Assembly: GCA_964396645.1 (NCBI GenBank)
Contig: CAYNFV010000002.1
Location: forward strand, 1-39,689
Source of the DNA: an uncultured Dehalococcoidales bacterium
Lineage (GTDB): Bacteria > Chloroflexota > Dehalococcoidia > Dehalococcoidales > BS750m-G39
Direction of reading: 5' to 3'
Length of the DNA stretch: 39,689 nucleotides
The notes under the pieces are model-generated. The model saw nothing but the letters and a program-made list of their open reading frames with translations, was not told the origin of the DNA and ran no database searches. Both the position numbers and the translations under genes were made by a program. Positions within the stretch are counted from its first letter, which is position 1; each line of letters opens with the position of its first letter. Of the stretch, positions 2,426 to 31,233 are shown in pieces.

Positions 2426-2458
2426 CCTTGGCTAATCAAATAGAAGAGTGGAGTGTGC

Positions 2459-7637: not shown

Positions 7638-7651
7638 AGGCGAGGGAAGAA

Positions 7652-9532
7652 ATGGTAGAGCCGGTGAGAAAACTACTGGAAAAGAAAGTGGAAAGCCCCG
7701 AGGAGCTGGAAAACCTGCGCCAGTCCATTCTGGCTAAAAGAGACCCCAAGCGCACCTGCATAACCGTCTGCGGCGGCACCGCCTGCCGCGCCTCCGGCGC
7801 TGAAGCGGTGGTCGAGGCCTTTGTTGATGAAATCGAAAGGCGCGAGCTTCAGGTCCAGGTCTCGCTCAAAGAGACCGGCTGCCACGGCTTCTGCGAAAGA
7901 GGCCCCCTGGTCGTCATCGAACCCAAGAAGCTCTTCTACCAGCGGGTCACCCCCGACGATGTCGAGGAGATTATCGACGAAACCATCTTGGCCGGCAGGG
8001 TCGTCGAGCGCCTTTTGTACACCGACCCGACGACCAAAGAGACCGTAACCTATGAGGCTGACGTCCCCTTCTATAAGAAGCAGACCCGGAACGTCTTCGG
8101 CACCAACGGCACCATCGACCCGACCAATATTGAGGATTATATCGCCATCGGCGGCTACGCCGCCCTGAGCAAGGCACTATTCCAGATGACCCCGGAAAAT
8201 ATTGTCGATGAGGTCCAGAAGTCGGGACTGAGGGGACGGGGCGGCGGCGGCTTCCCCACGGGCCGAAAGTGGCAGTCCTGCCACGAGGCTAAGAGCAAGG
8301 TAAAGTACGTTATCTGCAATGCCGACGAGGGCGACCCCGGCGCCTACCAGGACAGAAGCCTGCTCGAAGGCAACCCCCACAGCATTTTAGAAGGCATGAT
8401 AATCGGTGCCCGGGCCATCGGTTCCCACCAGGGCTATATCTATGTGCGCAACGAATACCCCTTAGCCGTCAGGCACGCCCGCATCGCCATTGAGCAGGCC
8501 ATGGACTACGGGCTGCTGGGCCGGAACATCTTAGGCTCCGGATTTGATTTCAACATAACCATAAACAAGGGCGGCGGCGCCTTCGTCTGCGGCGAGTCCA
8601 GTGCCCTCATGGCCTCGCTGGAAGGCAAGGTGGGCGAGCCCAAGGCGAAATACGTCCACATGGCCGAAAAAGGCCTCTGGGAGCGCCCCAGCCTGCTTAA
8701 CAACGTCAAGACCTGGGCTAACGTCCCATTGATAATAAACAAGGGCGCCGACTGGTACGCCCAGCTCGGCACTCAGGGCAGCAAGGGCACCATGATATTC
8801 TCGCTGGTGGGCAATATCGTCAACACCGGCCTGGTCGAGGTGCCCATGGGCATCACCCTCCGCGACATGATTTTTGATATTGGCGGCGGCATTCCTGAGG
8901 GTAAGAAGTTCAAGGCGGTGCAAACGGGCGGGCCATCGGGCGGTTGTATTCCCGAGCAATTTTTGGATACACCTGTTGACTTCGACGAGCTGACCAAGCT
9001 CGGCTCCATGATGGGCTCGGGCGGCATGATTGTCATGGACGAAGACACCTGCATGGTCGATGTCGCCCGCTACTTCATTGAGTTTCTAAAGGGCGAGTCC
9101 TGCGGCAAGTGCACCCCCTGCCGCGAGGGCATCAACCGCATGAGCCAAATCTTAAGCAACATTACCCAAGGCAAGGGTAAGCCCGAAGACCTGGATACTC
9201 TGCAAGACCTGGCTGAGGTCTTGAGCGCCGGCGCCCTCTGCGCGCTGGGCCAGACGGCGGCCAACCCGGTATTGAGCACCATCCGCTACTTTAAGGACGA
9301 ATACCTGACCCATATAAATAATAAAAAATGCCCCGCGGGCGTCTGCCGGGAGCTGGTGCGCTTCTCCATCGACCCCGAAAAGTGCGAAGGCTGCCTCAGG
9401 TGCATCAGGGAATGCCCCACCGGGGCTGTCACCGGCGAGAAAAAACAGCCCCACACCATAAACCAGGATATGTGTATCCGCTGCGGCGCCTGCTACGACG
9501 TCTGCAAGTTCAACGCCGTAATAAAGCGGTAA
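7652..9532 (+). CDS. NuoF/HydB-like FMN- and NAD(H)-binding FeS subunit with an N-terminal [2Fe-2S] domain and C-terminal 2x[4Fe-4S]
   Basis: FMN site GLRGRGGGGFPTGRKW, N3-type cluster motif ESCGKCTPCREG, and C-terminal CEGCLRCIRECP plus CIRCGACYDVC. Confidence 0.9.
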   Translation: MVEPVRKLLEKKVESPEELENLRQSILAKRDPKRTCITVCGGTACRASGAEAVVEAFVDEIERRELQVQVSLKETGCHGFCERGPLVVIEPKKLFYQRVTPDDVEEIIDETILAGRVVERLLYTDPTTKETVTYEADVPFYKKQTRNVFGTNGTIDPTNIEDYIAIGGYAALSKALFQMTPENIVDEVQKSGLRGRGGGGFPTGRKWQSCHEAKSKVKYVICNADEGDPGAYQDRSLLEGNPHSILEGMIIGARAIGSHQGYIYVRNEYPLAVRHARIAIEQAMDYGLLGRNILGSGFDFNITINKGGGAFVCGESSALMASLEGKVGEPKAKYVHMAEKGLWERPSLLNNVKTWANVPLIINKGADWYAQLGTQGSKGTMIFSLVGNIVNTGLVEVPMGITLRDMIFDIGGGIPEGKKFKAVQTGGPSGGCIPEQFLDTPVDFDELTKLGSMMGSGGMIVMDEDTCMVDVARYFIEFLKGESCGKCTPCREGINRMSQILSNITQGKGKPEDLDTLQDLAEVLSAGALCALGQTAANPVLSTIRYFKDEYLTHINNKKCPAGVCRELVRFSIDPEKCEGCLRCIRECPTGAVTGEKKQPHTINQDMCIRCGACYDVCKFNAVIKR

Positions 9533-9544
9533 AAGGAGGTAGTT

Positions 9545-10261
9545 ATGGCTAAGGTATGGATTGACGGTGAAACTTCGATAGAGGTGGAACACGCCGAAGG
9601 CGTCGACATTGTCCACCTCACCGTAGACGATAAAGAGATCGCCGTATCGGCGGGAAAAACAATTCTAGAGGCGGTGGAGCGCATGCACGGCATCGGTAAT
9701 ATACCCGCCCTCTGCCACCACCCCGCCGTTAAGCCCTACGGTGCCTGCCGCATCTGCACCGTCGAGGTCAGCGAGGACGGCGGCAACAGGTTCAAGTTCG
9801 TCGCCGCCTGCCTCTACCCGGTCAAAGAGGGCTTGATAGTCAAGACCCAGACCGAAAAGATAAAGAAGCTGCGCAAGGGCATAATCGAGCTTTTACTAGC
9901 CCGCTGTCCTAACGTCAAGAGGATACAGGAGCTGGCCGAGGAATACGGCGTGGAAAAACCCAGATTTGTCTTAGGCGACCAGGACTGCATCCTCTGCGGC
10001 TTGTGCGTCCGGGCCTGCCAGGAGATAATCGGCAAGTCGGCGATAAGCCTGGTCAACCGCGGCATCTATAAAGAGGTGGCGGCGCCCTTCTACGCTTACG
10101 AGCTTAGCGGCGACTGCATCGGCTGCGGCGACTGCGCCTTCGTCTGCCCCACCGGCGCTATTGAGATGGGCGACGACGGCCGACCCAACCTGCCCAAGGT
10201 CAAGATACCCTACGCCGAAATCGAGGCTATGACGAAGAAGGAATCTATAGCTACCTCCTAG
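9545..10261 (+). CDS. NuoG/HndD N-terminal-like [2Fe-2S] + 2x[4Fe-4S] protein lacking any catalytic (H-cluster or MopB) domain
   Basis: CHHPAVKPYGACRICTVEV, CILCGLCVRACQE and CIGCGDCAFVCPTGAI. The protein is only 238 aa. An AGGAGG RBS is present. Confidence 0.85.
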   Translation: MAKVWIDGETSIEVEHAEGVDIVHLTVDDKEIAVSAGKTILEAVERMHGIGNIPALCHHPAVKPYGACRICTVEVSEDGGNRFKFVAACLYPVKEGLIVKTQTEKIKKLRKGIIELLLARCPNVKRIQELAEEYGVEKPRFVLGDQDCILCGLCVRACQEIIGKSAISLVNRGIYKEVAAPFYAYELSGDCIGCGDCAFVCPTGAIEMGDDGRPNLPKVKIPYAEIEAMTKKESIATS

Positions 10262-11598: not shown

Positions 11599-11738
11599 TT
11601 TTCATTTCCTCCTTCTCACTCTATCGTTTCAGAAAAGCTGGATAATTTCAAGGGCTTTTCACCAGTTTTTAGGCTAATTTAGCCAGAAGACCTCAAGCAA
11701 AATCTGCCGAAGCCAGTTTTTGTGCCTCCCCGCAAAGT

Positions 11739-11767
11739 TTGACAAGGCCAAAAGTTTGATATATCTT
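11739..11767 (+). promoter_or_regulatory. Possible promoter of the GAF kinase operon
   Basis: TTGACA at 11739-11744, a 17-nt spacer, then TATCTT at 11762-11767. Confidence 0.3.
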
Positions 11768-11803
11768 AAGTTACTCTTTGTCCGATTCTGGGAAGGCTTG
11801 GAG

Positions 11804-13054
11804 ATGGAACCTGTAGAAACCGGCAGCTTAGAGAGACAGGATTTGCCCGACGAAGGAGAACGGTACCAGGAACTCCTCGCTTTAAGCCGGGTCTCAGCCG
11901 CCATCAGCGGTCTCTGGGACCTAGACGCTGTCCTCAAGGTAGCCCTGGATAACGTCCTCAAGATCATGAAGGGGACCATCGGCGGCATCCTGCTTCTGGA
12001 CGAGCAAACCCAAACCCTGTCCTACCATATCCATCAGGGCCTGAGCGATGATTACGTCGCCAATATGCGCCTCGCCCCCGGTGAAGGCATCGCCGGCAGA
12101 GTAGCTCAAAGCGGCAAAGCCATCCTGCTGGAGGATATCTCCACCGACTCTCGTGTAGCCCACCCCGAGCTGGTGCGCGCTGAGGGTCTAAAGGCCTTCA
12201 TCTGTGTCCCCATCAGGGCCAAGGATGACGTCCTGGGCGTAATTAACGTGGCCAGCCGCCGGGCACACCGCTTTACCACCAAGGATTTGCATTTGCTCTA
12301 TTCTATCGGCGACCAGCTTGGCGTCGCCATTCAGCAGGCCAAGCTCTACGAACGGCTACGAAAGGCAAGAGAAAGGTACCGCAAGCTCACCCGGCAGCTT
12401 CTGGTCGCCCAGGAAGACGAGCGGAAGAGACTGGCCCGCGAGCTGCACGACGAAACCAGCCAGACGCTTTCCGGGCTCACCCTGCAGCTACAGGCGCTGA
12501 CGGATATGGCCGAGAAGTCCAGCGGTGACACCGAGCTGGTAACCAGACTCAAGAAGGTGCAATCCCTGGCCGTCCATGTACACACCGAGATAAGAAGGTT
12601 AATGACCGACCTGCGCCCCTCGCTATTAGATACCTTAGGGCTGGTCCCCGCCATCCGTCAGCTGGCTGATACCAGGCTCCGCCCCTTAAACATCAACGTA
12701 TCGGTGAAAACTATCGGTAAGGAAAGACGTTTGGATTCGGAGGTCGAAACCGGTCTCTTCCGCGTTGCCCAGGGCTCCATAGGCAACATTATTGAGCATT
12801 CCCAGGCCAAGAACGCCACTATCTCCGTGGACTATCGTGATAACGAACTGGTGCTGCGCATCACTGATGATGGCCAGGGGTTCGATGTTTCCGATATCAC
12901 CGATGTTGAGGAGAGCGGGCGCGGGCGGGGTTTGTTCAGTATGAGAGAGAGAATCATGCTCCTGGGCGGTACCGCCTCTGTTGAATCAAAGATTGGCCAG
13001 GGAACCACGGTCTGGGCCAGCGTGCCAATAGACCACGGTGAGGAACATGGGTAA
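11804..13054 (+). CDS. Cytoplasmic GAF-domain sensor histidine kinase (HisKA_3 type)
   Basis: The GAF region runs from ALSRVSAAISGLWDLDAVL to VINVASRR. The H-box is RELHDETSQTL. DDGQGF and GLFSMRERIMLLGG are present. I prefer the ATG at 11804 because it lies downstream of the putative promoter. Confidence 0.88.
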   Translation: MEPVETGSLERQDLPDEGERYQELLALSRVSAAISGLWDLDAVLKVALDNVLKIMKGTIGGILLLDEQTQTLSYHIHQGLSDDYVANMRLAPGEGIAGRVAQSGKAILLEDISTDSRVAHPELVRAEGLKAFICVPIRAKDDVLGVINVASRRAHRFTTKDLHLLYSIGDQLGVAIQQAKLYERLRKARERYRKLTRQLLVAQEDERKRLARELHDETSQTLSGLTLQLQALTDMAEKSSGDTELVTRLKKVQSLAVHVHTEIRRLMTDLRPSLLDTLGLVPAIRQLADTRLRPLNINVSVKTIGKERRLDSEVETGLFRVAQGSIGNIIEHSQAKNATISVDYRDNELVLRITDDGQGFDVSDITDVEESGRGRGLFSMRERIMLLGGTASVESKIGQGTTVWASVPIDHGEEHG

Positions 13055-13700
13055 GATAAAGGTACTCGTCGTGGACGACCACCCTATCGTGAGGGATGGG
13101 ATTTGTGCTCTACTGGCCGTCGTCGGAGATATGGCAGTAGTCGCCGAGGCGGCTAATGGCAGCGAAGCAATAGATACGGTCAGAGAGCTGCAACCGGATG
13201 TCGTGCTTATGGATATTGCCATGCCCATCATGGGAGGACTGGAAGCCACCCGCCGCATATGCCGCGAATTTCCCAAGATAAAAGTGCTCGTCCTGACCCA
13301 GTATGACGATAAGGAATACGTACTACCCGTTATCGAAGCCGGTGCCGCCGGCTTTATCAGTAAGGCCGCCGCCTCCTCAGAGCTTATTTCTGGCATCCGC
13401 TCTGTTTACCGCGGCGATTCCTATCTTTCTCCACCGGTGGCCAAGCTACTCGTCGAAGGCTACCGCTACAAGGCCGGCAGCAAGGTTGGCCAGGACCCCT
13501 ATGAGCAACTGACCGACCGGGAGCGGGATGTATTAAAACTGATGGCCGAGGGCCACACCAATAAGGAAATAGCCGATATTCTGGTTATCAGCCGCAAGAC
13601 CGTTGAGGGCCATAAGACAAACCTTATGGCCAAGCTCGATATCCACAACCGTACCGAACTGGTCAAATATGCCCTGCGCAAGGGTATCATAACTGTCTGA
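13047..13700 (+). CDS. NarL/FixJ-family response regulator
   Basis: KVLVVDDHPIV, DVVLMDIAMPIMGG and the LuxR HTH LTDRERDVLKLMAEGHTNKEIADILVISRKTVEGHKTNLMAKL. The ATG overlaps the kinase stop (ATGGGTAA). Confidence 0.9.
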   Translation: MGKIKVLVVDDHPIVRDGICALLAVVGDMAVVAEAANGSEAIDTVRELQPDVVLMDIAMPIMGGLEATRRICREFPKIKVLVLTQYDDKEYVLPVIEAGAAGFISKAAASSELISGIRSVYRGDSYLSPPVAKLLVEGYRYKAGSKVGQDPYEQLTDRERDVLKLMAEGHTNKEIADILVISRKTVEGHKTNLMAKLDIHNRTELVKYALRKGIITV

Positions 13701-13902
13701 CAGCATTTTCCCAGCCGCACCCCACCCATCCCCACCCCTTGGGACTGGATAAACAGGGGCAAATTCCGCAAAATTCAGGGGTTTTCATGCTGACCATCAG
13801 GAAAAAGCCCTCTTCCCTTTCCGCAGCCTCTCGTTTATTGTTTAGCCTACCAACCCCTGACCGTGAAATTTGATTTACAGACGGGTGGTGAAGGAGGCTA
13901 AC

Positions 13903-14688
13903 ATGGAACAGAGTCGTAGAATCCTGATTGTGGATGATGACCCCGATTTTACCCAGCCTTTAAAGAAAGCCCTGGAGGATAAATCATACTCGGTAGCTAC
14001 CGCCTCTGAGCGGCGCCAGGCTGAAGATATGGTTCGCTCCCACGAGCCCGAGTTGATTGTACTGGGCGCCATTATGCCCCGCGGCGACGCCTTCCTCTTT
14101 CATCAGTGGCTGAAACAGTCGCTTGGATTCAGCAACCTGCCCATCATAATAGTCAATTCTCCGCCAGAAAAAGACCACATCAAGGGGTGGCGGCGAGAGG
14201 AAGGCATGCAGTGTGATGCCGAGGACTTCCTCTCCCGACCTATTGAGCTGAAGATGCTGGTGCCTCGAATCGAGAAGCTGCTAGACAGGGTAACCAAAAA
14301 GATTAGGGTCTTGGTGGTGGATGACCATGCCGTGGTCAGAGATGGCATTCGGGCGGTACTGGCCCTGCAGCGTGATATGCAGGTGGTGGGCGAAGCCATA
14401 GACGGCAAGGATGCGGTTGAGAAGACGGGCAAGCTGCTACCCGATGTGGTGCTCATGGACATAGTCATGCCCGGGATGAACGGTCTGGAGGCGACCAAGG
14501 AGATATGCAGCCAGTTCCACCAGGCCAAGGTCCTGATGTTGACGCAGTATGATGACGAGGAAAATGTTCTGGCCAGCCAGCAGATAGGCGCCTTCGGCTT
14601 TATTCCCAAAACGGTGGTCAGCTCTCAGCTACTGAACGGAATACGCTCGGTGTATGAAGGCAAGAAATTCATCTGCACCGTTAATTAG
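13903..14688 (+). CDS. Tandem receiver (REC-REC) protein without an output domain; the first REC is degenerate
   Basis: In REC1 the phospho-acceptor position is Gly (LIVLGAIMP; GGC 14065-14067) and the conserved Lys is Arg (FLSRPI). REC2 is canonical NarL-type (DVVLMDIVMPGMNG, IPKT), but the protein ends before any HTH. A GAAGGAGG RBS precedes the ATG at 13903. Confidence 0.8.
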   Translation: MEQSRRILIVDDDPDFTQPLKKALEDKSYSVATASERRQAEDMVRSHEPELIVLGAIMPRGDAFLFHQWLKQSLGFSNLPIIIVNSPPEKDHIKGWRREEGMQCDAEDFLSRPIELKMLVPRIEKLLDRVTKKIRVLVVDDHAVVRDGIRAVLALQRDMQVVGEAIDGKDAVEKTGKLLPDVVLMDIVMPGMNGLEATKEICSQFHQAKVLMLTQYDDEENVLASQQIGAFGFIPKTVVSSQLLNGIRSVYEGKKFICTVN

Positions 14689-14715: not shown

Positions 14716-17400
14716 TTGGAAACAATTACAATCACACTTGATGGTGTGGAGGTAAGCGGCTCTGCCGGGATGAGCATCCTAGAGCTCGCCCGGGAATCAG
14801 GAGTGGATATTCCCACTCTTTGTCATGACCGTTATCTTATCCCCACCGGTGCCTGCCGGCTCTGTATTGTCGAAGACGAGAGTTCCGGAGCCCTGCTTGC
14901 CTCCTGCGTCTCGCCAATAAGGGCCGGGATGGTGATAAACACCCGCTCGCCACGGGTAATGGAGCGTCGGAAAACACTCATCCAGCTCATGCTCGCCAGC
15001 CACCCCGACTCTTGCTTGGTGTGTGATAAAGGCAACCAGTGCCAGCTGAGGAAGCTGGGCGCCGAGATGGGCATCGGGCTGGTGGAACTACAAAGAATCC
15101 CGCAACTGGCGGCCATTCAAGAGGTGAACCCCTTCATTGAAAGAGACCTGTCCAAGTGCATCCTATGCGGCAAGTGTATCCGGGCCGACCAGGAGCTCGT
15201 TGTCGAAGGCGCCATTGATTACATCGGCCGCGGCTTTGCCGCCAGACCGGCCACACTAAATGATATGCCGCTGGAAAGCTCTGAGTGCACCTTCTGCGGG
15301 ACCTGCGTCGCCCACTGTCCCACCGGTGCCCTCATGGAAAAAGAGAGGGCATACCGCGGCACGACCACGACCACCGTTGATACCGTCTGTCCCTTCTGTG
15401 GCTGCGGCTGTATCCTCCACCTGGAGGTAAAGGATAATCAGATAGTAAGGGTTAAGCCGGGGGAAAGCCCGGTCAATCACGGTACGCTCTGCGCCCGGGG
15501 GAGCTACGGCTACGATTTCATAGAGAGCCCGGAAAGGCTGACCAGTCCCCTAATCAAGGTGGACGGCGATTTTCAAAAAGCATCCTGGGAAGAGGCCATA
15601 GAGCGGGTAGCTGCTGAGTTCAAAAGGATAAAAGAGGCCTATGGCGCCGACAGTCTGGCCGTGCTTGGTTCCTCCAAGTGTACCAACGAAGAGAACTACC
15701 TGCTACAGAGGCTGGCCCGGGTAACATTAGGCACCAACAACATTGATAACGGCAGCCGTCTCTATGGCTCGGCCAGCCGGGTTGGTCTGGGGCGCTCTAT
15801 CGGTTTTCCGGGGACAACGAATTCATTGGAAGAACTGGAGAAATCAGAGCTAATAATGGTTATCGGGGCTAACCCCGTTGTCTCGGCGCCGGCGGTGGGC
15901 TATGCCATAAAACGCGCCGTTAAATATAACGGCGCCAGGCTGCTATTGGTCGACGTGCGCCCCACCAAGCTCAACCATTTCGCTCATATCTGGCTGAAAC
16001 CTAGGATGGGCACTGATGTAGCCCTGCTCAACGGCCTGGCCCGGGTGATCATTGAGGAAAGACTGTTCGACGAGGAATTCGTCGCCCGCAAAACGGACAA
16101 CTTCGACGAGCTTTCCCAGAGCCTGAAGCCCTATAGCCTGGAAAGGGTGGAAAAGCTAACCGGTATCCCCAAACAGGATGTTCAGCGGGCAGCCCGTAGT
16201 CTGGCTGAGGCAGAGTGGGCTTCTATTGTTTACGGAAACGGGATTACCCAGCACGTCAACGGCGTTGACGGCGTAATGGCCCTGGCTAACCTGGCCATGC
16301 TGACGGGGAACATCGAGCGTCGGGGCGGAGGCATCTTTGCCCTGCAACGGGAAAACAACGCCCAGGGTGCCTGTGATATGGGCAGCCTGCCCGATTTCCT
16401 GCCCGGCTATAAGAGCCTGGACGACGAGCCGGCTAAGAGTGACTTTGAAAAGCGGTGGGGGAGCCGTCTGCCCCAAAATAGCGGGCTATCGGCGCTGGAG
16501 ATGATGGAACAGGCTCAAGCCGGAAAGCTCAAAGGGATGCTGGTTGTCGGCGAAAACCCCGCCACCAGCTTCCCCCGCCCCTCTCTGGTTAAAAAGGCCC
16601 TGGATTCTCTGGAGTTTCTGGTGGTGGCCGACATCTTCCTTAACGAGACGGCTAAGCTGGCCGACGTAGTCCTGCCCTCAGCCAGCTTCGCCGAAAAGGA
16701 GGGCAGCTTCACCAACTTTGAAGGCAGGACCCAGCCGGCCAGAAAGGCCATCGAACCAATTGGCGAATGCCAGCCCGATTGGAAGATAATTCTCCAGCTG
16801 TCCGATAAAATGGGGCAGCCGATGCCCTATTCCTCTCCCCAGGAGGTCAGGAGCGAGATCGAAGAGCTGGTCCCCTTTTATCAGCCCCCCGCCTCGGCCG
16901 ACCTGGAGAAGGAGGACGTGGACTGGGCTGAGCTGGAGAGTGATAGCGTACGCACCAGGCGCCTCTACAAAGGCCCCTTCCCCAGCGGCTTCGGGCGCCT
17001 TTCCCCAATTGAGTTTAGCCCGCCCACCGATGTATCCGCTAACGGCTACCCGCTGACCCTGCTGTCGGGCTCTATACTGCACCACTTCGGCAGCGGCACC
17101 AGGAGCTCTAGGGCCTCGCGGCTCAAGGAATTTTTGCCACACTCCTGGCTGGAAGTCAGCCCGGGCGATGCCAGGAAACTCGGCATTGGCGACGGGGACC
17201 CGGTCAGGGTAGTCTCACCACTAGGCGAACTGACGACCAAGGTAAAGCTAAGCGACTCGTTACCCCCGGGGCTGCTCTTCATGCCCATCTCTTTCCCGGA
17301 GAGCCCGATAAACGAGCTCTTCGATAGCAAACTAGACCCCCGCTCCAAGGCTCCTTTTCTCAAAAGCTGCGCGGTGAGGCTGGAAAGGACTAAGTCGTAA
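14716..17400 (+). CDS. FdhA/NuoG-like molybdopterin-oxidoreductase-family subunit with N-terminal [2Fe-2S]/[4Fe-4S] domains; lacks the Sec/Cys-His catalytic dyad of formate dehydrogenases
   Basis: The N-terminus carries CHDRYLIPTGACRLC, HPDSCLVCDKGNQC, CILCGKCIRA and CTFCGTCVAHCP. The MopB cluster motif is CPFCGCGC...C. The active-site segment reads TNNIDNGSRLYGSAS, with TAT (Tyr350) at 15763-15765. The start is TTG with an AAAGGAG RBS. Confidence 0.85.
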   Translation: METITITLDGVEVSGSAGMSILELARESGVDIPTLCHDRYLIPTGACRLCIVEDESSGALLASCVSPIRAGMVINTRSPRVMERRKTLIQLMLASHPDSCLVCDKGNQCQLRKLGAEMGIGLVELQRIPQLAAIQEVNPFIERDLSKCILCGKCIRADQELVVEGAIDYIGRGFAARPATLNDMPLESSECTFCGTCVAHCPTGALMEKERAYRGTTTTTVDTVCPFCGCGCILHLEVKDNQIVRVKPGESPVNHGTLCARGSYGYDFIESPERLTSPLIKVDGDFQKASWEEAIERVAAEFKRIKEAYGADSLAVLGSSKCTNEENYLLQRLARVTLGTNNIDNGSRLYGSASRVGLGRSIGFPGTTNSLEELEKSELIMVIGANPVVSAPAVGYAIKRAVKYNGARLLLVDVRPTKLNHFAHIWLKPRMGTDVALLNGLARVIIEERLFDEEFVARKTDNFDELSQSLKPYSLERVEKLTGIPKQDVQRAARSLAEAEWASIVYGNGITQHVNGVDGVMALANLAMLTGNIERRGGGIFALQRENNAQGACDMGSLPDFLPGYKSLDDEPAKSDFEKRWGSRLPQNSGLSALEMMEQAQAGKLKGMLVVGENPATSFPRPSLVKKALDSLEFLVVADIFLNETAKLADVVLPSASFAEKEGSFTNFEGRTQPARKAIEPIGECQPDWKIILQLSDKMGQPMPYSSPQEVRSEIEELVPFYQPPASADLEKEDVDWAELESDSVRTRRLYKGPFPSGFGRLSPIEFSPPTDVSANGYPLTLLSGSILHHFGSGTRSSRASRLKEFLPHSWLEVSPGDARKLGIGDGDPVRVVSPLGELTTKVKLSDSLPPGLLFMPISFPESPINELFDSKLDPRSKAPFLKSCAVRLERTKS

Positions 17401-17885
17401 TGGCCAGAGCCAAGAAGGTTAGCCAGGCCGACCTGAAGAAGATTGACACTATTATCGCCAACTATCAGGAGCAGAGATGGGGGCTTATCCCTCTGCTGCA
17501 TGATGTCCAGCAGGCGGTGGGCTATATCCCCCCGGAGGCAATACCGCGCATCGCCAGCGCCCTGGGCCTCTTTCCCAGCCAGGTACAGGGGGTGATTACC
17601 TTTTATGCCCAGTTTTATACCGAGCCGCGGGGCAGGAATATCGTCAGGGTATGCCGGGGCACGGCCTGTCATGTGCGGGGCGGCAAAACGATACTGAAGC
17701 TGGTAAAGCAAGAGCTGGGCTTAGAAGAAGGCGAGACCAGCCCCGACCTGGAATACACCCTGGAGACCGTGGCCTGCATTGGTGTCTGCGCCCTGGCGCC
17801 CAACATCGTCATCAACCAGGAAACCCACGGCAATCTGAACCCGAAGAAAGTAGCCCGATTGTTCGAGAGTAGGCGTAAGAAATGA
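17400..17885 (+). CDS. NuoE/HydC-like [2Fe-2S] subunit
   Basis: VCRGTACHVRGG and ACIGVCALAPNIVIN. The ATG overlaps the upstream stop (TAATG). Confidence 0.9.
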   Translation: MARAKKVSQADLKKIDTIIANYQEQRWGLIPLLHDVQQAVGYIPPEAIPRIASALGLFPSQVQGVITFYAQFYTEPRGRNIVRVCRGTACHVRGGKTILKLVKQELGLEEGETSPDLEYTLETVACIGVCALAPNIVINQETHGNLNPKKVARLFESRRKK

Positions 17886-20800
17886 AGGGAAACGGACATA
17901 AAAAGCGCACTGTTCTTGTCTGCCGGGGCACGGGGTGTGTCTCGGGCGGGGGCGACGCTGTCCTCAAGGCGCTGAAAAGCGAGCTGGCCAGGCAGGGTGT
18001 CAAGGGCGCCGAGATTGATTTCACCGGCTGTCACGGCTTCTGCCAGCAGGGCCCCAATGTTGTCGTCGAGCCGGACGGCATCTTCTATACCCACGTCGAG
18101 CCCGAGGATGCGGCTGAGATTGTAAGCTCGCACCTGCGCGACGGCAAGCCAGTGGAGCGCCTCTTCTACCGCGACCCCGTCAGCGGCCAGGCGATACCAC
18201 GATACGCCGATATTAAATTCTATAAAGAGCAGAGGCGGGTCGTCCTGCGCAACTGTGGGCATATCAATCCGGAGAGGATTGATGACTACCTTGACCGCGG
18301 CGGCTACCAGTCCCTGCGCAAGGTGCTCTTCCAGATGAAGCCAGAAGAGGTCATCGACGAGGTAAAGAGGTCGGGATTGCGCGGGCGCGGTGGGGCCGGT
18401 TTCCCCACCGGACTCAAGTGGGAATTCTGCCACAATGCCTCCGGCTCACCCAAATATGTTATCTGCAACGCTGATGAAGGCGACCCCGGTGCCTTTATGG
18501 ACCGCTCTATCCTGGAGGCAGACCCCCATTCCGTCATCGAAGGGTTGGCCATCTGCGCTTACGCCATCGGTTCTAATGAAGGTTATATCTATGTTCGCGC
18601 CGAATACCCACTGGCGGTAAGCCGGCTCCGGATAGCTCTTGACCAGGCCAGAGAGAGGGGGTTCCTGGGTAATGATATACAGGGCTCCGGTTTCAATTTC
18701 AATGTGCAAATTAAGGAAGGGGCCGGTGCCTTTGTCTGTGGTGAGGAGACCGCCCTTATCGCCTCTATCGAGAGCCGGCGGGGCATGCCCCGCCCCCGCC
18801 CGCCTTTCCCGGCCCAGTCGGGGCTGGACGGTAAGCCCTCCAACATTAACAATGTGAAAACACTGGCCTCAATACCGGTCATTATGGAGAGGGGCGCCGA
18901 CTGGTTTGCCAGTATCGGCACCGAGAAGAGCAAGGGCACCGCCGTTTTTGCCCTCACCGGTAAAATCGCCAACAGCGGACTGGTGGAGGTGCCCATGGGT
19001 ACCCCGTTATCCAAAATTATCTACGAGATTGGCGGCGGCATCCCCAGAAATAAACGGCTTAAAGCGGTGCAGACCGGCGGCCCCTCCGGCGGCTGTATAC
19101 CGGCCCGTTTCATTGACCTGCCGGTGGACTACGAGTCACTGGCCAAGATGGGCTCGATAATGGGCTCCGGCGGCATGGTGGTCATGGACGAGACGACCTG
19201 TATGGTGGATGTTGCCCGCTACTTTCTCAGCTTCACCCAGGCCGAGTCCTGCGGAAAGTGCACCCCCTGCCGCCTGGGGACGAGACAGATGCTGGAAATA
19301 CTGACCCGAATCACGGAAGGCAAAGGCAGCGAGACTGACATAGACACCCTGCTGGCTATAGCCGTAACCGTCAAGGAGTGCTCACTGTGCGGCCTCGGCC
19401 AGACCTCGCCCAACCCGGTGCTCTCCACCATTGAATACTTTCGGGAGGAGTATGATGCCCACATAAAGGAGAAGAAGTGTCCGGCGGCGGTCTGCGACGC
19501 CCTGATGATATCGCCCTGTCAGCACACCTGCCCGGTAGGCATCAACATCCCCAAATATGTGGCCCATATCGCCGCCGGTGAATATAGAGAGGCTGTGGAG
19601 ACTATCTGGGAGCGCAACCCCTTCCCGGCTATCTGCGGCCGCATCTGCAGTCACCCCTGTGAGTTCAGGTGCCGCCGCGGGGAACTGGACGACCCCGTGG
19701 CTATCCGAGCCCTGAAACGCTTCGCCTCTGACTGGTATTTCGAAAACGTCACCGAAGACCCCGAGCCCTTTCCCCAAACCCAGAGCCAGCGAGTGGCTGT
19801 GGTCGGGGCGGGGGCCACGGGACTTTCTTGCGCCTACTTCCTGGCCAAGATGGGCTACCCGACAACCGTCTTCGAGGCGCTCCCCGTGGGCGGCGGTATG
19901 CTCTCGGTGGCCATACCCGAGTTCCGGTTACCTCGAGCGATTATCGAAAAGGAGATTGACTATATCGCCAAACGGGGGGTGGATATACGCTACAACACCC
20001 CGATTAACGTTAACTTCACCGTGGAGGACCTGAGGAAGGACGGCTACTCCGCCGTCTTTATCGCCGCCGGCGCTCAGAGAAGCCAGCGCATCGGCGTGCC
20101 CGGCGAACTGGAGGACGTCGAAGGCTTCTATTACGGACTGAGGTTCCTAAGAGACGTAAAGCTGGGCCGAGCGGTTAAGGTCGGCCGCCGCACCGCCGTC
20201 ATCGGCGGTGGCAACGTGGCCCTGGATGCGGCCCGCACTGCCCTACGCTCCGGTGCCGAGGAGGTAAAGATATACTACCGCCGCTCCCGGGAGGAGATGC
20301 CGGTTACCGAGGTAGAATACGACCAGGCTATTGACGAGGGCATTGAGGTCGGCTTTTTGATTAGCCCCACCCGCATCGTCGTCGATAACTGGCGGCTAAC
20401 CGGTCTGCAGTGCATCAAGATGAAGCTCGGCGAGCCCGACCAGAGCGGCCGCCGGCGGCCCGTCCCCATCACCGGCTCGGAGACCTTTATTGAGGCTGAT
20501 ACTGTTATCGCCGCCGTGGGCCAGGCGCCAGACCTCTCCTTCCTGCCCCTTGACAGCGTTCTGGAGCGCACCCGCTGGGAGACCCTGGTCGTTGACAGCA
20601 ACACCCTGGCGACCAACATCAGCGGCATCTTTGCCGGTGGTGACTTTGTTACCGGGCCGGGTATGGTGATAGACGCCATCGCCGCCGGCAGGAGGGCAGC
20701 CATCTCTATAGACAAATACCTGAGGGCCGATACCTCCAGGGTTGAGATGTACGACCTTAAAGCCAGAGTCGTCGGCGAGGAGCCGGCGCCAGAGGTGGAG

Positions 20801-20950
20801 GAAGCCTGGGAAGCACAGCCCAGAGTGGCCGTGCCGACACTCCCAGTCAAAGAAAGGAAAACGAGCTTTGCCGAGATAGAGCTTTGCTTCTCTGAAGAGA
20901 AGGCCCAGCAGGAAGCCAGGCGGTGTCTCAGGTGTGACCTAGAGACCTAG
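17882..20950 (+). CDS. Fusion protein: NuoF/HydB-like FMN/NADH FeS module (residues 1 to about 530) + GltD/NfnB-like FAD/NAD(P)H module (about 531-1022)
   Basis: NuoF part: VCRGTGCVSGG...CHGFCQQGP, GLRGRGGAGFPTGLKW and ESCGKCTPCRLG. GltD part: CQHTCPVGINIPKYV, CGRICSHPCEFRCRRG, the dinucleotide folds VAVVGAGATGLSCAYFL and TAVIGGGNVALDAA, and GIFAGGD. The ATG overlaps the nuoE-like stop (ATGA). Confidence 0.9.
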   Translation: MKGNGHKKRTVLVCRGTGCVSGGGDAVLKALKSELARQGVKGAEIDFTGCHGFCQQGPNVVVEPDGIFYTHVEPEDAAEIVSSHLRDGKPVERLFYRDPVSGQAIPRYADIKFYKEQRRVVLRNCGHINPERIDDYLDRGGYQSLRKVLFQMKPEEVIDEVKRSGLRGRGGAGFPTGLKWEFCHNASGSPKYVICNADEGDPGAFMDRSILEADPHSVIEGLAICAYAIGSNEGYIYVRAEYPLAVSRLRIALDQARERGFLGNDIQGSGFNFNVQIKEGAGAFVCGEETALIASIESRRGMPRPRPPFPAQSGLDGKPSNINNVKTLASIPVIMERGADWFASIGTEKSKGTAVFALTGKIANSGLVEVPMGTPLSKIIYEIGGGIPRNKRLKAVQTGGPSGGCIPARFIDLPVDYESLAKMGSIMGSGGMVVMDETTCMVDVARYFLSFTQAESCGKCTPCRLGTRQMLEILTRITEGKGSETDIDTLLAIAVTVKECSLCGLGQTSPNPVLSTIEYFREEYDAHIKEKKCPAAVCDALMISPCQHTCPVGINIPKYVAHIAAGEYREAVETIWERNPFPAICGRICSHPCEFRCRRGELDDPVAIRALKRFASDWYFENVTEDPEPFPQTQSQRVAVVGAGATGLSCAYFLAKMGYPTTVFEALPVGGGMLSVAIPEFRLPRAIIEKEIDYIAKRGVDIRYNTPINVNFTVEDLRKDGYSAVFIAAGAQRSQRIGVPGELEDVEGFYYGLRFLRDVKLGRAVKVGRRTAVIGGGNVALDAARTALRSGAEEVKIYYRRSREEMPVTEVEYDQAIDEGIEVGFLISPTRIVVDNWRLTGLQCIKMKLGEPDQSGRRRPVPITGSETFIEADTVIAAVGQAPDLSFLPLDSVLERTRWETLVVDSNTLATNISGIFAGGDFVTGPGMVIDAIAAGRRAAISIDKYLRADTSRVEMYDLKARVVGEEPAPEVEEAWEAQPRVAVPTLPVKERKTSFAEIELCFSEEKAQQEARRCLRCDLET

Positions 20951-20968
20951 CTAGGCAGGAGGTTTGCC

Positions 20969-21613
20969 ATGAAATCAATAACCAGACAGAAGCCCTTCGA
21001 AGAAATAAAGCAGCAGCTAGACAGCTTTAACCGGGTGTTTATCATCGGCTGCGGTACCTGTGCCACCATGACCAAGACCGGTGGCATTGAGCAGGTGCTG
21101 GAGATGAAGAGCCAGCTTCAGAAGATAGACAAGCTGGTCAGTGGCTGGACAGTTATCCCTATCGCCTGCGACGAAATGAGTGAAGTAGCCATGAAGGAAA
21201 ATGACCGGGCTATTCAGAATTCGAACTGTGTCCTAGTAATGAGTTGCGCACTGGGTGTACACAAGATAAGTACTTACATTGACCACCCGGTCATTCCGGC
21301 GCTGGATACCCTGTTCATCGGTATGGAGGATACCCCGGGCTATTTTCGCGAGGTCTGTGCCCAGTGCGGGCAATGTATCATTGGTGAAACCGCCGGCATA
21401 TGCCCCATCACCGCCTGCCACAAAGGTCTGGTTAACGGCCCCTGCGGCGGCACCAATAACGGCAAGTGTGAGGTGGACAAAGAGAAGGACTGTGCCTGGA
21501 CGCTTATCTACGAGCGACTCAAGGCCCAGAACCGCCTTGATTTAATGCGAAAGTATCAGCCTCCCCACAACTTCCAGGCATCGCCCCGGCCGAGGACAGC
21601 CAGAATCTCATAG
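20969..21613 (+). CDS. metV: MetV, the zinc-ribbon/FeS small subunit of anaerobe-type methylenetetrahydrofolate reductase
   Basis: FIIGCGTCATMTKTGG and CPITACHKGLVNGPCGG motifs. It sits immediately upstream of metF. AGGAGG lies 6 nt before the ATG. Confidence 0.85.
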   Translation: MKSITRQKPFEEIKQQLDSFNRVFIIGCGTCATMTKTGGIEQVLEMKSQLQKIDKLVSGWTVIPIACDEMSEVAMKENDRAIQNSNCVLVMSCALGVHKISTYIDHPVIPALDTLFIGMEDTPGYFREVCAQCGQCIIGETAGICPITACHKGLVNGPCGGTNNGKCEVDKEKDCAWTLIYERLKAQNRLDLMRKYQPPHNFQASPRPRTARIS

Positions 21614-21628
21614 AAGGAGGTCAGCAAA

Positions 21629-22513
21629 ATGGTGTCAAGCTTTAAAGAAAAGCTCAACTCGGGCAAGTTTGTCATTACCAGCGAGGTGGCACCTCCCAAG
21701 GGGACCAACCTGGAAAAAACACTGCACCATATTGACCTTCTCAAAGATAAGGTGGATGCGATTAACGTTACCGACCATCAGAGCTCGGTAATGCGCTTCC
21801 CCTCCATCGGCGGCTGCCTGGCGATTAAGGAAAGGGGTGGCGAGCCTATCCTGCAGATGACCTGCCGCGACCGCAACCGCCTGGCCCTCCAGGCCGAGCT
21901 CTTGTTTGCCTATTCCCGGGGTATAAACAACGTTCTCTGCCTCACCGGCGACGCTGTTCCCGTCGGCGACCACAAAGAGGCTAAGGGAGTCTTCGACCTC
22001 GATTCCCTGCAGCTGCTGAAGACGATTCGGATAATGGAATCGGGGCAGGATTTGGGGGGCAATAACCTCGATGGGGCGGTGGAGTTCTGCGCCGGCGCCA
22101 CCGTCACCCCGGAGGCTAATCCAATTGAGCCCCAGCTCATCAAATTCGAGAAGAAGGTGGAGGCGGGCGCCGAATTCTTCCAGACCCAGGGAATCTACGA
22201 CCTGGATAACTTTGCCAAATTCATGAAGCACGCCCGTCAGTTTCCGGTTAAGATACTGGCCGGTATAATCCTGCTCTCTTCAGCCAGAATGGCCAAGTTT
22301 ATGACGGAAAATGTCCCGGGTATATTTGTCCCCCAAGAAATGATTGGCGAACTGGCGGCAGTACCCAAAGAGGAGATGCTGAGCAAGGGTATTGAAATCG
22401 CCGGGCGCATGATTAAAGCCTTGAAAAAGGACTCCGTTTGCGATGGCGTGCACATTATGGCCATTGGCAAAGAGGAGGTCGTCCCCGATATCCTGGCCGC
22501 CGCCGGCCTGTAG
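21629..22513 (+). CDS. metF: Methylenetetrahydrofolate reductase, MetF (acetogen/anaerobe type)
   Basis: 294 aa. KFVITSEVAPPKG, DAINVTDHQSS, MTCRDRN and FFQTQGIYD are typical of the MTHFR TIM barrel. A GAAGGAGG RBS is present. Confidence 0.9.
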   Translation: MVSSFKEKLNSGKFVITSEVAPPKGTNLEKTLHHIDLLKDKVDAINVTDHQSSVMRFPSIGGCLAIKERGGEPILQMTCRDRNRLALQAELLFAYSRGINNVLCLTGDAVPVGDHKEAKGVFDLDSLQLLKTIRIMESGQDLGGNNLDGAVEFCAGATVTPEANPIEPQLIKFEKKVEAGAEFFQTQGIYDLDNFAKFMKHARQFPVKILAGIILLSSARMAKFMTENVPGIFVPQEMIGELAAVPKEEMLSKGIEIAGRMIKALKKDSVCDGVHIMAIGKEEVVPDILAAAGL

Positions 22514-22517
22514 GGCG

Positions 22518-23222
22518 TTAAACTACTCTCTGGGGATTGGTGTAGATCTTCATTCCCCTATCCCTGACAAAGCCGATAATGGTCAGCCCGCACTCCTGTC
22601 CAATCTCGATTCCCAGCCTGGTTACCGCCGTCTTGGTGGCCACAACGGGAATCCTGGCCCGGCAGACCTTGGAAACCATGTCGGAGACCATCCTGCCGGT
22701 TGAGGTGGCGAAGGTATGGCTGAGGTCAAACTTATTAATCAGGGCGTAGCCAATCACCTTGTCCAGTGCGCTGTGCCGTCCGATGTCTTCGGTTATGCAG
22801 ACTGGTTCCGCCCCCCGTTTAAACAGCCCGGCTGAGTGTATGCCTCCGGTCTCGGCGTATATTTTAGATTTCAGGATGGCGTTGACCCCCTTGAATATAT
22901 CTTCTCGGCTGACGCTGAAATCAGAGCCTATCTCCGCAGGCCCTTTTGCCTTACCCTTTTTCTTGAGCAGGCTCACCTCAGCGGTATCCCCTCTCAGTGT
23001 TATCGATTCTATGTCGGCAGCGCTTTCGATAACTCCCCACCCGAACAGGTGCCCGACTACAAACTCCTTCTCCATCATGGGCGTTATCATGGCGGTGGTA
23101 AAATGCTTTCCGTTTACAATAATTGATAAACCCAGCTCGGTGACTACCCTTTCCCTAGCCTTGCTGACTTCGGCATCCAACCTGGTGTATTCAACCCACT
23201 CCAGGCTTCTATCTTTGGACAT
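22518..23222 (-). CDS. fdhD: FdhD-family protein (formate dehydrogenase accessory/sulfur-carrier family), short form lacking the CxxC loop
   Basis: The family signature ITEDIGRHSALDKVIGYAL and ETGGIHSAGLF are present. The protein is 234 aa with only three isolated Cys and no CxxC. Its stop is 4 nt from the metF stop (convergent). Confidence 0.75.
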   Translation of the reverse strand: MSKDRSLEWVEYTRLDAEVSKARERVVTELGLSIIVNGKHFTTAMITPMMEKEFVVGHLFGWGVIESAADIESITLRGDTAEVSLLKKKGKAKGPAEIGSDFSVSREDIFKGVNAILKSKIYAETGGIHSAGLFKRGAEPVCITEDIGRHSALDKVIGYALINKFDLSHTFATSTGRMVSDMVSKVCRARIPVVATKTAVTRLGIEIGQECGLTIIGFVRDRGMKIYTNPQRVV

Positions 23223-23368: not shown

Positions 23369-24256
23369 ATGAGACATACTAAAGTTAGTCCTAGAGCCGC
23401 CATGCTCACCCTCTATGGGGACTATGTGCTCCACAGGGGGGGTGAGATTGGAATTGGTAGTCTGGTCAGGCTGCTGAGCAATTTTGGCCTGTCGGAACAG
23501 GCTATCAGGTCAGCCGTTTCCCGGATGTGCCGTTCCGGTCTGCTCAAGGCAAAGCGGGCCAACCGCAAAAGCTTCTACTCCCTGACCAGCGAGGGGCATA
23601 GCCTGCTCACCGAGGGGGCGCTGCGCATCTTCCAGCGCAAGCAGTCCCACTGGGAAGGCAACTGGAACATTGTCACCTACTCCATACCGGAACCACTGCG
23701 CCAGGCCAGGGACAGATTGCGCCTTGAGCTGGGCTGGCTGGGCTACGGGCCGCTGGGCGAGGCCACCTGGATTTCACCCCACGACCTGACTCAAGAGGTG
23801 AAGAAGCTGTTGCGGAAACTCGATATTGAGCAATATGTTAACGTCTTCCGCGCCCAGCACCAGGGCAACACTGAACCAAAGAAGATTGTCTCCCGCTGCT
23901 GGGACCTGGGCAAGATACACCAGGAGTACGCCGATTTCCTGACTGCCTATCGCCCCAAGCTGGAAGGGCACCGGAAACGGTTAGAGGCCGGGGAAACCAT
24001 TGAACCCAGCGAGTGTTTTGTCGCCCGTTTCAACCTTATCCATGAATACCGCAAGCTGCCCTTCTTTGACCCCGACCTGCCGCTGGAGCTCCTCCCCGAG
24101 AACTGGTTACGGCCCCAGGCGGCGGCTCTATTTAATGAATATCACGGCTTACTCACCGAGAAAGCCAATGAATACTTCGACTCGGTTTCCGAGAACTACC
24201 GAAGCGCCAGGAGGCTTAAAGAGAAGGGCGCCAAGGCGCTGACGAAAGTAAACTAG
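23369..24256 (+). CDS. paaX: PaaX-family transcriptional regulator (aryl-CoA-responsive repressor family)
   Basis: The N-terminal winged helix LYGDYVLHRGGEIGIGSLVRLLSNFGLSEQAIRSAVSRMCRSGLL...RKSFYSLTSEG is collinear with E. coli PaaX. The C-terminal PaaX_C-like segment is LIHEYRKLPFFDPDLPLELLPENW. Confidence 0.85.
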   Translation: MRHTKVSPRAAMLTLYGDYVLHRGGEIGIGSLVRLLSNFGLSEQAIRSAVSRMCRSGLLKAKRANRKSFYSLTSEGHSLLTEGALRIFQRKQSHWEGNWNIVTYSIPEPLRQARDRLRLELGWLGYGPLGEATWISPHDLTQEVKKLLRKLDIEQYVNVFRAQHQGNTEPKKIVSRCWDLGKIHQEYADFLTAYRPKLEGHRKRLEAGETIEPSECFVARFNLIHEYRKLPFFDPDLPLELLPENWLRPQAAALFNEYHGLLTEKANEYFDSVSENYRSARRLKEKGAKALTKVN

Positions 24257-26914: not shown

Positions 26915-26933
26915 AAGAAAGGGATAAAAGATA

Positions 26934-31201: not shown

Positions 31202-31233
31202 AGAAGGCGACTCTTTAGGAGCGAGCTTTAAAA

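Follow-up and report, generated by a model that had tools for sequence, protein, structure and literature searches.

A Formate Dehydrogenase-like Protein with a Probably Dead Active Site Is Encoded ahead of NuoE, NuoF and MetVF Genes in an Uncultured Dehalococcoidales Bacterium

Introduction

Iron–sulfur (Fe–S) subunits that descend from formate dehydrogenases (FDHs) and carry no cofactor are already known. In the NfnA subunit of Caldicellulosiruptor saccharolyticus, the pterin site of the Fdh/NuoG-like domain is incomplete, and no pterin density was found there (PMC11829005). StnC of Sporomusa ovata is an FDH by annotation; its formate:methyl viologen activity was assayed and none was detected, and the stn genes are located directly downstream of metVF (PMC7483475). 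An enzyme arrangement of the kind described below has also been noted previously and is uncharacterized: Yi et al. (2021) reported nuoEFG–metFV in Desulfobacterales and Chloroflexi as a widespread, unstudied ‘X type’ methylene-tetrahydrofolate (methylene-THF) reductase (MTHFR), the MetF of which falls into a separate phylogenetic group (PMC8515935). Here, we analyzed a stretch of 39,689 nucleotides from an uncultured Dehalococcoidales bacterium (assembly GCA_964396645.1, contig CAYNFV010000002.1, positions 1 to 39,689; the window in the following). It contains an operon that starts with a gene for an FdhA-like protein, here called FdhA(Y), in which Tyr occupies the position of the metal ligand.

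We propose, with a probability of roughly 0.7, that FdhA(Y) is the dead descendant of the alpha subunit of a cytoplasmic NAD-type FDH, which would now serve as the NuoG/BfuA-type Fe–S subunit of an NAD(P)H-oxidizing flavoprotein module. The coupling of methylene-THF reduction to energy conservation is a long-standing question in the research of acetogens and the Wood–Ljungdahl pathway. Reading the NuoEFG part of the ‘X type’ enzyme as a permuted NfnABC/Stn module with NADH-type and NADPH-type sites yields testable hypotheses for a conserved five-gene cassette. Searching the literature for MetVF in combination with NuoEF–GltD plus an FdhA-like protein, or for Bfu-type enzymes linked to tetrahydrofolate, we found only the paragraph of Yi et al.

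Former Active Site of FdhA(Y)

The gene and the segments of its former active site are the following.

14716..17400, + strand: FdhA(Y), FdhA-like/NuoG-like subunit, 894 aa, TTG start (Pfam, PDB sequence search and NCBIfam)
15733..15777, + strand: former active-site loop TNNIDNGSRLYGSAS, residues 340–354, with Gly346 (Cys in FDHs), Tyr350 (selenocysteine (Sec)/Cys ligand in FDHs; codon TAT, 15763–15765) and Gly351 (His in FDHs)
15871..15891, + strand: NPVVSAP, residues 386–392; N(T/P)xxxHP in FDHs, with His replaced by Ala391
16339..16368, + strand: ALQRENNAQG; PLRGQNNVQG in FDHs, with the catalytic Arg replaced by Gln544, Gly by Arg545 and Gln by Glu546
16720..16728, + strand: EGR; ERR in FDHs, with Arg replaced by Gly670
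17065..17100, + strand: SGSILHHFGSGT; TGRxLYHFHTGT in FDHs, here with Ser786 in place of Arg and Gly792 in place of the second His

The open reading frame (ORF) of FdhA(Y) is intact. Its Pfam domains (Fer2_4, NADH-G_4Fe-4S_3, 2x[4Fe-4S] ferredoxin, Molybdop_Fe4S4 (PF04879), Molybdopterin (PF00384) and Molydop_binding (PF01568)) make up the complete cytoplasmic FdhA/NuoG architecture. The PDB sequence search returned YjgC (E = 7e-182), FdsA (9wxb_B, E = 3e-175) and NfnA (9bov_A, E = 1e-87), where the match covers the Fdh/NuoG-like part of NfnA, as it does in StnC. Against the NCBIfam models, FdhA(Y) scored 708.6 bits for TIGR01591 (FDH-alpha equivalog), above the cut-off of 666.25, and 344 bits for TIGR01973 (NuoG), below the cut-off of 470.

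In the HMMER alignment, the loop TNNIDNGSRLYGSAS aligned without gaps to TNNTDTCARVCHSPT of FdsA (9wxb_B) and to TNNVDNCSRYCQSPA of Bacillus subtilis ForC/YjgC (8rqz_C). This puts Tyr350 in the place of the Sec/Cys ligand, Gly351 in that of the His and Gly346 in that of the CAR Cys. The initial annotation, made from the letters of the window, had read these three replacements by eye within 15745–15780 (a span covering D344–R355), and the alignment to solved FDHs bears them out, including the TAT codon. Its further statements also hold: Tyr350 follows the fourth cluster Cys, C259, by 91 residues (350 − 259), the 894-aa frame has no in-frame stop, and NPVVSAP stands in place of the His motif. 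The loss of the catalytic Arg had not been recorded there. Beside the ligand, the catalytic residues of Escherichia coli FdhH are H141 and R333. A Cys at the metal site that the reading by eye might have overlooked was also sought, and no substitute ligand was apparent: the conserved Cys residues of the MopB domain (C322, C553 and C885) are those conserved in canonical FDHs as well.

We compared 28 MetVF-linked proteins with 37 canonical FdhA sequences. Among the 202 MopB columns that are invariant in the canonical group, 40 were lost in 80% or more of the MetVF-type sequences. The lost columns include seven Arg (544, 670, 729, 757, 786, 835 and 836) and six His (345, 351, 391, 751, 792 and 859). 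The column of His391 has turned to Ala, Val or Leu in 27/28 MetVF-type sequences, Arg670 to Gly in 26/28, His792 to Gly in 28/28 and Arg786 to Ser or Thr in 25/28. The cofactor of FDHs, bis-molybdopterin guanine dinucleotide (bis-MGD), has four phosphate groups, and formate is likewise negatively charged. Loss of cationic residues is therefore what abandonment of the cofactor site would be expected to leave, and the disappearance of about 13 conserved Arg/His residues argues against bis-MGD binding by the MopB domain, as far as sequence can tell. The assignment of these residues to cofactor contacts known from FdhH and Nap structures is presumptive; a literature search for a published list of the MGD-contact residues of FdhH found none.

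Conservation of Tyr350

Tyr350 was present in 115 of the 116 full-length clade members, at identities down to 63%; the remaining one has Phe. Among the 120 database proteins nearest to it (identity of at least 69%), the motif NGSRLY[S/G/N] was near-universal. Across 26 independent genome loci, the Tyr codon was TAT in 16 and TAC in 10. The MopB domain is the faster-evolving part of FdhA(Y) overall, yet Gly346 and Gln544 were invariant in the 116 members. Tyr350 is thus real and under selection. TAT is a single transition away from the Cys codon TGT, as would suit a sequencing error or a pseudogene in decay. Conservation of Tyr through both codons, the intact frame of 894 codons and the invariant Fe–S ligands leave this explanation virtually no chance, and we rejected it on the conservation and codon evidence.

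The residue is not shared by the whole MetVF-linked family. The ligand position holds Tyr in Chloroflexota, most Bacillota and Dethiobacteria, and Ser in Deltaproteobacteria (Desulfobacterota) and Nitrospirota, where the deltaproteobacterial members have a Tyr two residues before the Ser (‘NGGYxSG’). Elsewhere it is Glu-His (locus L021), His (L068) or Cys-Gly (L017). Tyr350 thus appears to be a lineage-specific residue rather than a family-wide catalytic one; what the whole family has in common is that conserved charged residues were lost.

An exhaustive search with HMMER through 1.84 billion cluster representatives gave the 150 nearest 50%-identity clusters, which were aligned together with the query (151 sequences). 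The canonical triad (C/U-H plus Arg) was found in 48 of these. The other 103, the query among them, lack it and have nearly any residue at the ligand position. Catalytically degenerate FdhA-like proteins therefore appear to be common, and FdhA(Y) is by this measure not very unusual.

The proteins of the FdhA(Y) clade carry misleading names. Clade members are called ‘formate dehydrogenase (subunit) alpha’ or ‘Formate dehydrogenase H’ by JGI and NCBI. FdhA(Y) passes the cut-off of TIGR01591, a model that does not discriminate dead members, and is systematically mis-named as a result. A simple flag for such genes would be the ligand C/U followed by H, together with the Arg of LRGQNN.

Iron–Sulfur Sites

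In contrast to the MopB pocket, the Fe–S part of FdhA(Y) is retained, with the following sites.

14821..14907, + strand: [2Fe-2S] ligands C36, C47, C50 and C64, invariant in the 116 clade members (Fer2_4)
15001..15042, + strand: His-ligated [4Fe-4S] motif HPDSCLVCDKGNQC (H96, C100, C103 and C109), invariant in the clade (NADH-G_4Fe-4S_3)
15157..15318, + strand: 2x[4Fe-4S] ferredoxin-like domain, first motif CxxCxxCxxxD, with the fourth Cys replaced by Asp158 (GAC, 15187–15189)
15388..15492, + strand: MopB-type [4Fe-4S] motif C225-x2-C228-x3-C232...C259, Cys invariant in the clade

All five Fe–S sites are kept and, apart from the Asp158 variant, their ligands are invariant in the clade. Asp158 ends the motif CILCGKCIRAD and aligns to a Cys of ‘CVRACEE’ in FdsA. 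Position 158 is Asp in 110/116 clade members and Cys in all of the 39 canonical FDH representatives that cover it; Asp also occurs in 21 of the 103 non-canonical representatives. Deltaproteobacterial MetVF-type proteins share the Asp, and the Bacillota and Dethiobacteria members retain Cys. From its sequence, this replacement implies an Asp-ligated [4Fe-4S] or a [3Fe-4S] cluster in the presumed electron path. Directly behind the cluster of the MopB domain, the Lys of canonical FDHs has also changed: residue 261, two positions after the fourth Cys, is Arg in 104/116 clade members and mostly so in the MetVF-type family.

Operon Partners

FdhA(Y) is followed on the same strand by four genes.

17400..17885, + strand: NuoE/BfuC-like thioredoxin-type [2Fe-2S] subunit, 161 aa, its start overlapping the stop of FdhA(Y) (Pfam and NCBIfam; syntenic in all related loci)
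17882..20950, + strand: fusion flavoprotein, Bfu-type NuoF/HydB homologue plus GltD/NfnL-like domain, 1022 aa (Pfam, PDB search and motifs)
20969..21613, + strand: MetV, MTHFR small subunit, 214 aa (PF12225; syntenic)
21629..22513, + strand: MetF, MTHFR catalytic subunit, 294 aa (PF02219; syntenic)

The junctions within this five-gene run (G-E-F-V-F order, 14716–22513) are overlapping or very short.

Residues 10–542 of the flavoprotein comprise an N-terminal [2Fe-2S] domain, the FMN/NADH motifs GAGFPTG and ADEGDPG, an N3-type cluster and KKCPAAVC. Their best PDB matches were bifurcating enzymes: NiFe-Bfu (7t2r_B, 5e-241), HydB (7q4v_B), NfnB (9bov_B) and StnB (8oh5_B), with E values up to 1e-201. 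Non-bifurcating NuoF/FdsB matched far more weakly (about 1e-123). Residues 544–1019 form a GltD/NfnL-like FAD domain with 2x[4Fe-4S] (Fer4_20) and GGGNVA, a GxGxxA motif of the NADP type. This part matched the NfnL-like NADPH/FAD domain of 9bov_A (residues 102–567) at 1e-126, and also those of Tsib NfnA and StnC. The fusion junction lies directly after KKCPAAVC, where the NfnL-like domain replaces the usual C-terminal 2x[4Fe-4S] domain of BfuB (B3/B4). By these matches, the flavoprotein is a BfuB of the bifurcating type that carries the NADPH domain of NfnA as a fusion.

Three regulator genes precede the operon.

11720–13054, + strand: GAF histidine kinase (translation; Pfam labels of homologues)
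13038–13700, + strand: LuxR-type response regulator (translation; Pfam labels of homologues)
13870–14688, + strand: double-receiver protein, ending 27 bp before FdhA(Y)

These genes (11720–14688) are syntenic with the operon in Dehalococcoidia, in an actinomycetotal locus (L017), in a locus of Bacillota (L021) and in one of Dethiobacteria (L025). This suggests an eight-gene cassette, composed of the regulators and the five genes, that moves horizontally.

On the proposed reading, the MopB domain would bind no Mo/W-bis-MGD and oxidize no formate, and Tyr350 would be a lineage-specific stand-in in the vacated metal site rather than a metal ligand. NADH, at the FMN site, and/or NADPH, at the FAD site, may be oxidized on the fusion flavoprotein. 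The electrons would then run through the Fe–S chain of FdhA(Y) to MetV and on to the flavin of MetF, where methylene-THF would be reduced. Ferredoxin could be a third partner, which would give the ‘X type’ MTHFR.

Synteny Survey

A scan of one genome per species gave 80 loci, in which we located the operon genes by tblastn with the window proteins; a locus was taken as informative if it had at least 6.5 kb downstream. NuoE, NuoF(+GltD), MetV and MetF followed all 16 of the 16 informative non-canonical FdhA-like genes and none of the 16 canonical ones (Fisher p = 3e-9 for this contrast, in which the loci are not phylogenetically independent). Canonical FdhA has NuoE–NuoF(–GltD) upstream and often FdhD downstream. 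The conserved MetVF context thus points to the identity of FdhA(Y). The arrangement spans Dehalococcoidia, Chloroflexia, Actinomycetota, Bacillota, Dethiobacteria, Nitrospirota and Deltaproteobacteria, that is, at least six phyla. The nearest relatives were Dehalococcoidales metagenome-assembled genomes (MAGs), and the deltaproteobacterial carriers were L045, L050, L055, L062 and L075. Two long contigs with homologues of 70% and 86% identity have the same five genes, with the same three regulator genes before them. By its gene content, the module matches the ‘X type’ NuoEFG–MetFV reductase of Yi et al. (2021).

Several loci depart from the common pattern. Locus L020 (10001–16700, Bacillota MAG002) keeps the order FdhA(Y)–NuoE–NuoF–MetV–MetF, and tblastn found no GltD/NfnL-like domain on its NuoF-like gene, so that the NADPH module seems dispensable in some lineages. 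In L024 (9998–14268, Dehalococcoidia bacterium CG2_30_46_9), a canonical FdhA with Cys-His and Arg has a stop overlapping the start of metV–metF; no NuoE or NuoF genes were found within 15.6 kb, and a RACo gene is nearby. Locus L026 resembles it. L024 may encode a formate-linked methylene-THF reductase, or it may represent the ancestral state of the dead-FDH arrangement. A MopB gene downstream of metF in a complete Dehalococcoidales genome (L001, 18146–19254) was considered as a possible Sec-containing FDH partner and dismissed: its product is another MopB protein, and a masked run of N interrupts the gene.

In a midpoint-rooted neighbour-joining tree, calculated without support values, 27 of the 28 non-canonical sequences fell into one clade, while L024 and the degenerate L027 were basal on the canonical side. 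This is suggestive of descent from an active FdhA with an existing link to MetVF. L024 with active FdhA and MetVF, the degenerate L027 and the remodelled Tyr/Ser clades would together form a graded example of the conversion of a molybdoenzyme to an Fe–S scaffold, as has been postulated for NuoG.

Alternative Explanations

The initial annotation had left three readings of the altered active site side by side: a NuoG-like scaffold without cofactor, a Mo/W enzyme with a new ligand and an enzyme with a different substrate. The scaffold is now favored by the missing triad, the loss of about 13 Arg/His residues, the variability of the ligand position and the known analogues; the Mo/W enzyme with a Tyr ligand is disfavored, and the change of substrate gained no positive support. 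Several observations nonetheless weigh against the proposed reading. The MopB domain of FdhA(Y) still looks strongly like that of an FDH, with Pfam scores of 241 bits (Molybdopterin) and 85 bits (Molydop_binding) in addition to the TIGR01591 score. Of 75 MopB columns with at least 90% conservation among the canonical representatives, FdhA(Y) keeps 55 (73%), as compared with at least 91% in canonical members. Both Rossmann-like nucleotide-binding motifs still show their Gly/Asp signature (GANP...DVR, mostly DPR in the clade, and GENP...ADIF). Near-invariance of G346, Y350, Q544, A391, G670 and S786 in the clade could reflect a new ligand and not mere packing. The AlphaFold2 model was poor (mean predicted local distance difference test score 63.7, predicted template modelling score 0.56; 58-sequence alignment with homologues of at least 69% identity). 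Its low-confidence segments are the Fe–S sites and the would-be cofactor loops, which makes the pocket not judgeable from the model. Compared with the PDB by Foldseek, the model matched only NAD-type FDHs, with a template modelling score of about 0.6; this confirms the FDH fold and adds nothing to the sequence search. A physical complex with MetVF is drawn from synteny only, and the Stn enzyme of S. ovata purifies without MetVF (PMC7483475). Finally, an FdhD/NarQ-family gene that scores above the TIGR00129 cut-off is located at 22518–23222 on the − strand, convergent with metF and with the two stops 4 bp apart.

Part of these observations would fit a MopB domain that still holds a pyranopterin or guanine-dinucleotide cofactor, with Mo/W bound through Tyr-O (Ser-O in Desulfobacterota), with a metal free of a protein ligand as in arsenite oxidase, or without metal, for a new chemistry or for a relay from the proximal [4Fe-4S] to MetV. 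Both residues offer a hydroxyl ligand; in dimethyl sulfoxide reductases, Mo is known to be bound by Ser. The residual FDH similarity, the retained nucleotide-binding motifs, the strong purifying selection on the remodelled pocket and the adjoining FdhD-like gene speak for it. We consider it improbable, because the seven Arg and six His are gone family-wide and other members have Glu, His or Cys-Gly at the ligand position. Adjacency of FdhD was rejected as a sign of cofactor insertion: FdhD is common next to canonical FdhA, it stands beside no other MetVF-type locus, and the window copy has a short interdomain linker without Cys, so that the sulfur-transfer loop is absent. In E. coli FdhD, the Cys residues of this loop are C121/C124. 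The analogues point the same way, with no pterin density in NfnA and no FDH activity in StnC. A working FDH with some other residue as the metal ligand would agree with the TIGR01591 score and with the database names; it is highly improbable, since an alternative conserved Cys is missing, the catalytic His and Arg are also gone, the gene context is unlike that of canonical FdhA, and StnC showed no such activity.

A dead FdhA(Y) leaves the function of the module to be weighed. It could be a true five-subunit MTHFR, to which we would give not quite even odds. It could also be a free-standing, permuted transhydrogenase of the Stn/NfnABC type (NADH + reduced ferredoxin ↔ NADPH), merely co-transcribed with a separate MetVF, in which FdhA(Y) would keep its scaffold role. 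The domain content equals that of NfnABC/StnABC, the stnABC genes of S. ovata lie directly downstream of metVF and yet Stn is an active heterotrimeric transhydrogenase (PMC7483475), and MetVF alone is active in Clostridium ljungdahlii (PMC8515935). The transhydrogenase is the less likely of the two in view of the strict co-occurrence, gene order and tight junctions across at least six phyla, and of the separate phylogenetic group III formed by the MetF of the NuoEFG–MetFV arrangement (PMC8515935). Moreover, the C-terminal 2x[4Fe-4S] domain of BfuB, reported as essential for bifurcation by HydABC (PMC11829005), is replaced here, and L020 lacks the GltD-like domain yet keeps MetVF. A more daring proposal makes the module a domain-permuted Bfu/Nfn member hard-wired to MetVF. 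As a bifurcating methylene-THF reductase, it would use NAD(P)H to reduce methylene-THF and ferredoxin, and its pocket (Tyr350, Gln544, Arg545 and Glu546) would hold a metal-free or O-ligated pterin or a Tyr relay between [4Fe-4S] and MetV; we regard this as a long shot. Whether the five proteins form one reductase or the module is a free-standing transhydrogenase, FdhA(Y) is predicted to be no formate dehydrogenase.

Other Features of the Window

A class II benzoyl-CoA reductase-like cluster is located at 24315–31971 (+ strand), together with 23369–24256, and is preceded by a PaaX-type regulator. Its BamB orthologue matched Geobacter metallireducens 4z3w_A with E = 0 and 1087 bits. The rest of the cluster encodes a 174-aa ORF without Pfam match in a BamC-like position, an HdrD-like CCG protein (BamD-like), a 1030-aa HdrA-like protein (BamE-like) and MvhD+Fer4 (BamF-like). 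The regions 2453–4630 and 7140–10261 (both + strand) contain a second, divergent AOR-family tungstoenzyme gene (best PDB match 1aor, 1e-43) and, near it, a classical BfuCBA/BamGHI-like trio of a NuoE-like protein, a 626-aa BfuB with C-terminal 2x[4Fe-4S] and a short, 238-aa BfuA with Fe–S clusters only. With this trio and the FdhA(Y) module, the window has two different Bfu-type modules. Near the left end of the window, a gene of the phage-integrase family with an N-terminal helix–turn–helix (1323–2333, − strand) may mark a mobile region.

Comparison with Known Systems

The alpha subunits of NAD-dependent Mo/W FDHs (R. capsulatus FdsA, 6tg9; M. extorquens FDH1, 7vw6; B. subtilis ForC/YjgC, 8rqz) are collinear with FdhA(Y) over the full length, and they share the five Fe–S sites, the MopB fold and the NuoE/NuoF-type diaphorase partners. 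FdhA(Y) differs from them by the absence of Cys/Sec, His, Arg, Lys and about a dozen more Arg/His, and by the exchange of one Fe–S Cys for Asp. The gene order is reversed, with FdhA first, and FdhD is found at no MetVF-type locus except for the window copy without the Cys loop.

NuoG/Nqo3 of complex I resembles FdhA(Y) in its FDH-derived C-terminal domain, which is cofactor-less in NuoG, in the N7-type [4Fe-4S] cluster and in the position of the Fe–S wire beside NuoE/NuoF. The sequence of FdhA(Y) is much nearer to FDH, membrane-arm genes are absent, and the context is MetVF. OmeA of Dehalococcoides, an FDH-like subunit of the complex iron–sulfur molybdoenzyme type, comes from the same class of bacteria; it is annotated as FDH, has Ser in place of the Cys/Sec ligand, and occurs in organisms reported to show no FDH activity (PMC5736913). 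OmeA is a periplasmic, membrane-associated protein of the FdnG type in the organohalide respiration complex; it lacks a NuoG-type N-terminus, and neither NuoEF nor MetVF forms its context.

The ‘X type’ MTHFR (Dethiosulfatarculus sandiegensis; PMC8515935) has the same gene arrangement and Chloroflexi/Desulfobacterales hosts, and L055 and L062 contain the same five genes. Its report is a one-paragraph genomic note without biochemistry, in which the NuoG homologue, the dead site, the GltD fusion and the relation to Nfn–Bfu enzymes were not analyzed (PMC8515935).

The closest likeness is with NfnABC (9bov) and StnABC (8oh5). NfnA and StnC combine NuoG-type clusters with a MopB-derived domain annotated as FDH or molybdopterin oxidoreductase, as FdhA(Y) does, and they are likewise partnered by a GltD/NfnL-like NADPH domain, a NuoE-like subunit and a Bfu-type NuoF-like subunit. 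Moreover, the stn genes lie beside metVF. The NfnL-like domain is attached to the C-terminus of the NuoF-like protein here and to the N-terminus of the NuoG-like protein there. The C-terminal 2x[4Fe-4S] domain of BfuB is absent, MetV–MetF are always in the operon, and the MopB domain of FdhA(Y) is much closer to real FDHs than to NfnA (3e-175 vs. 1e-87). The three proteins are predicted to comprise the domains of NfnABC/StnABC, where one fusion is now on the B subunit instead of the A subunit. The same domain content, fused differently, would make the module a domain-permuted relative of NfnABC/Stn.

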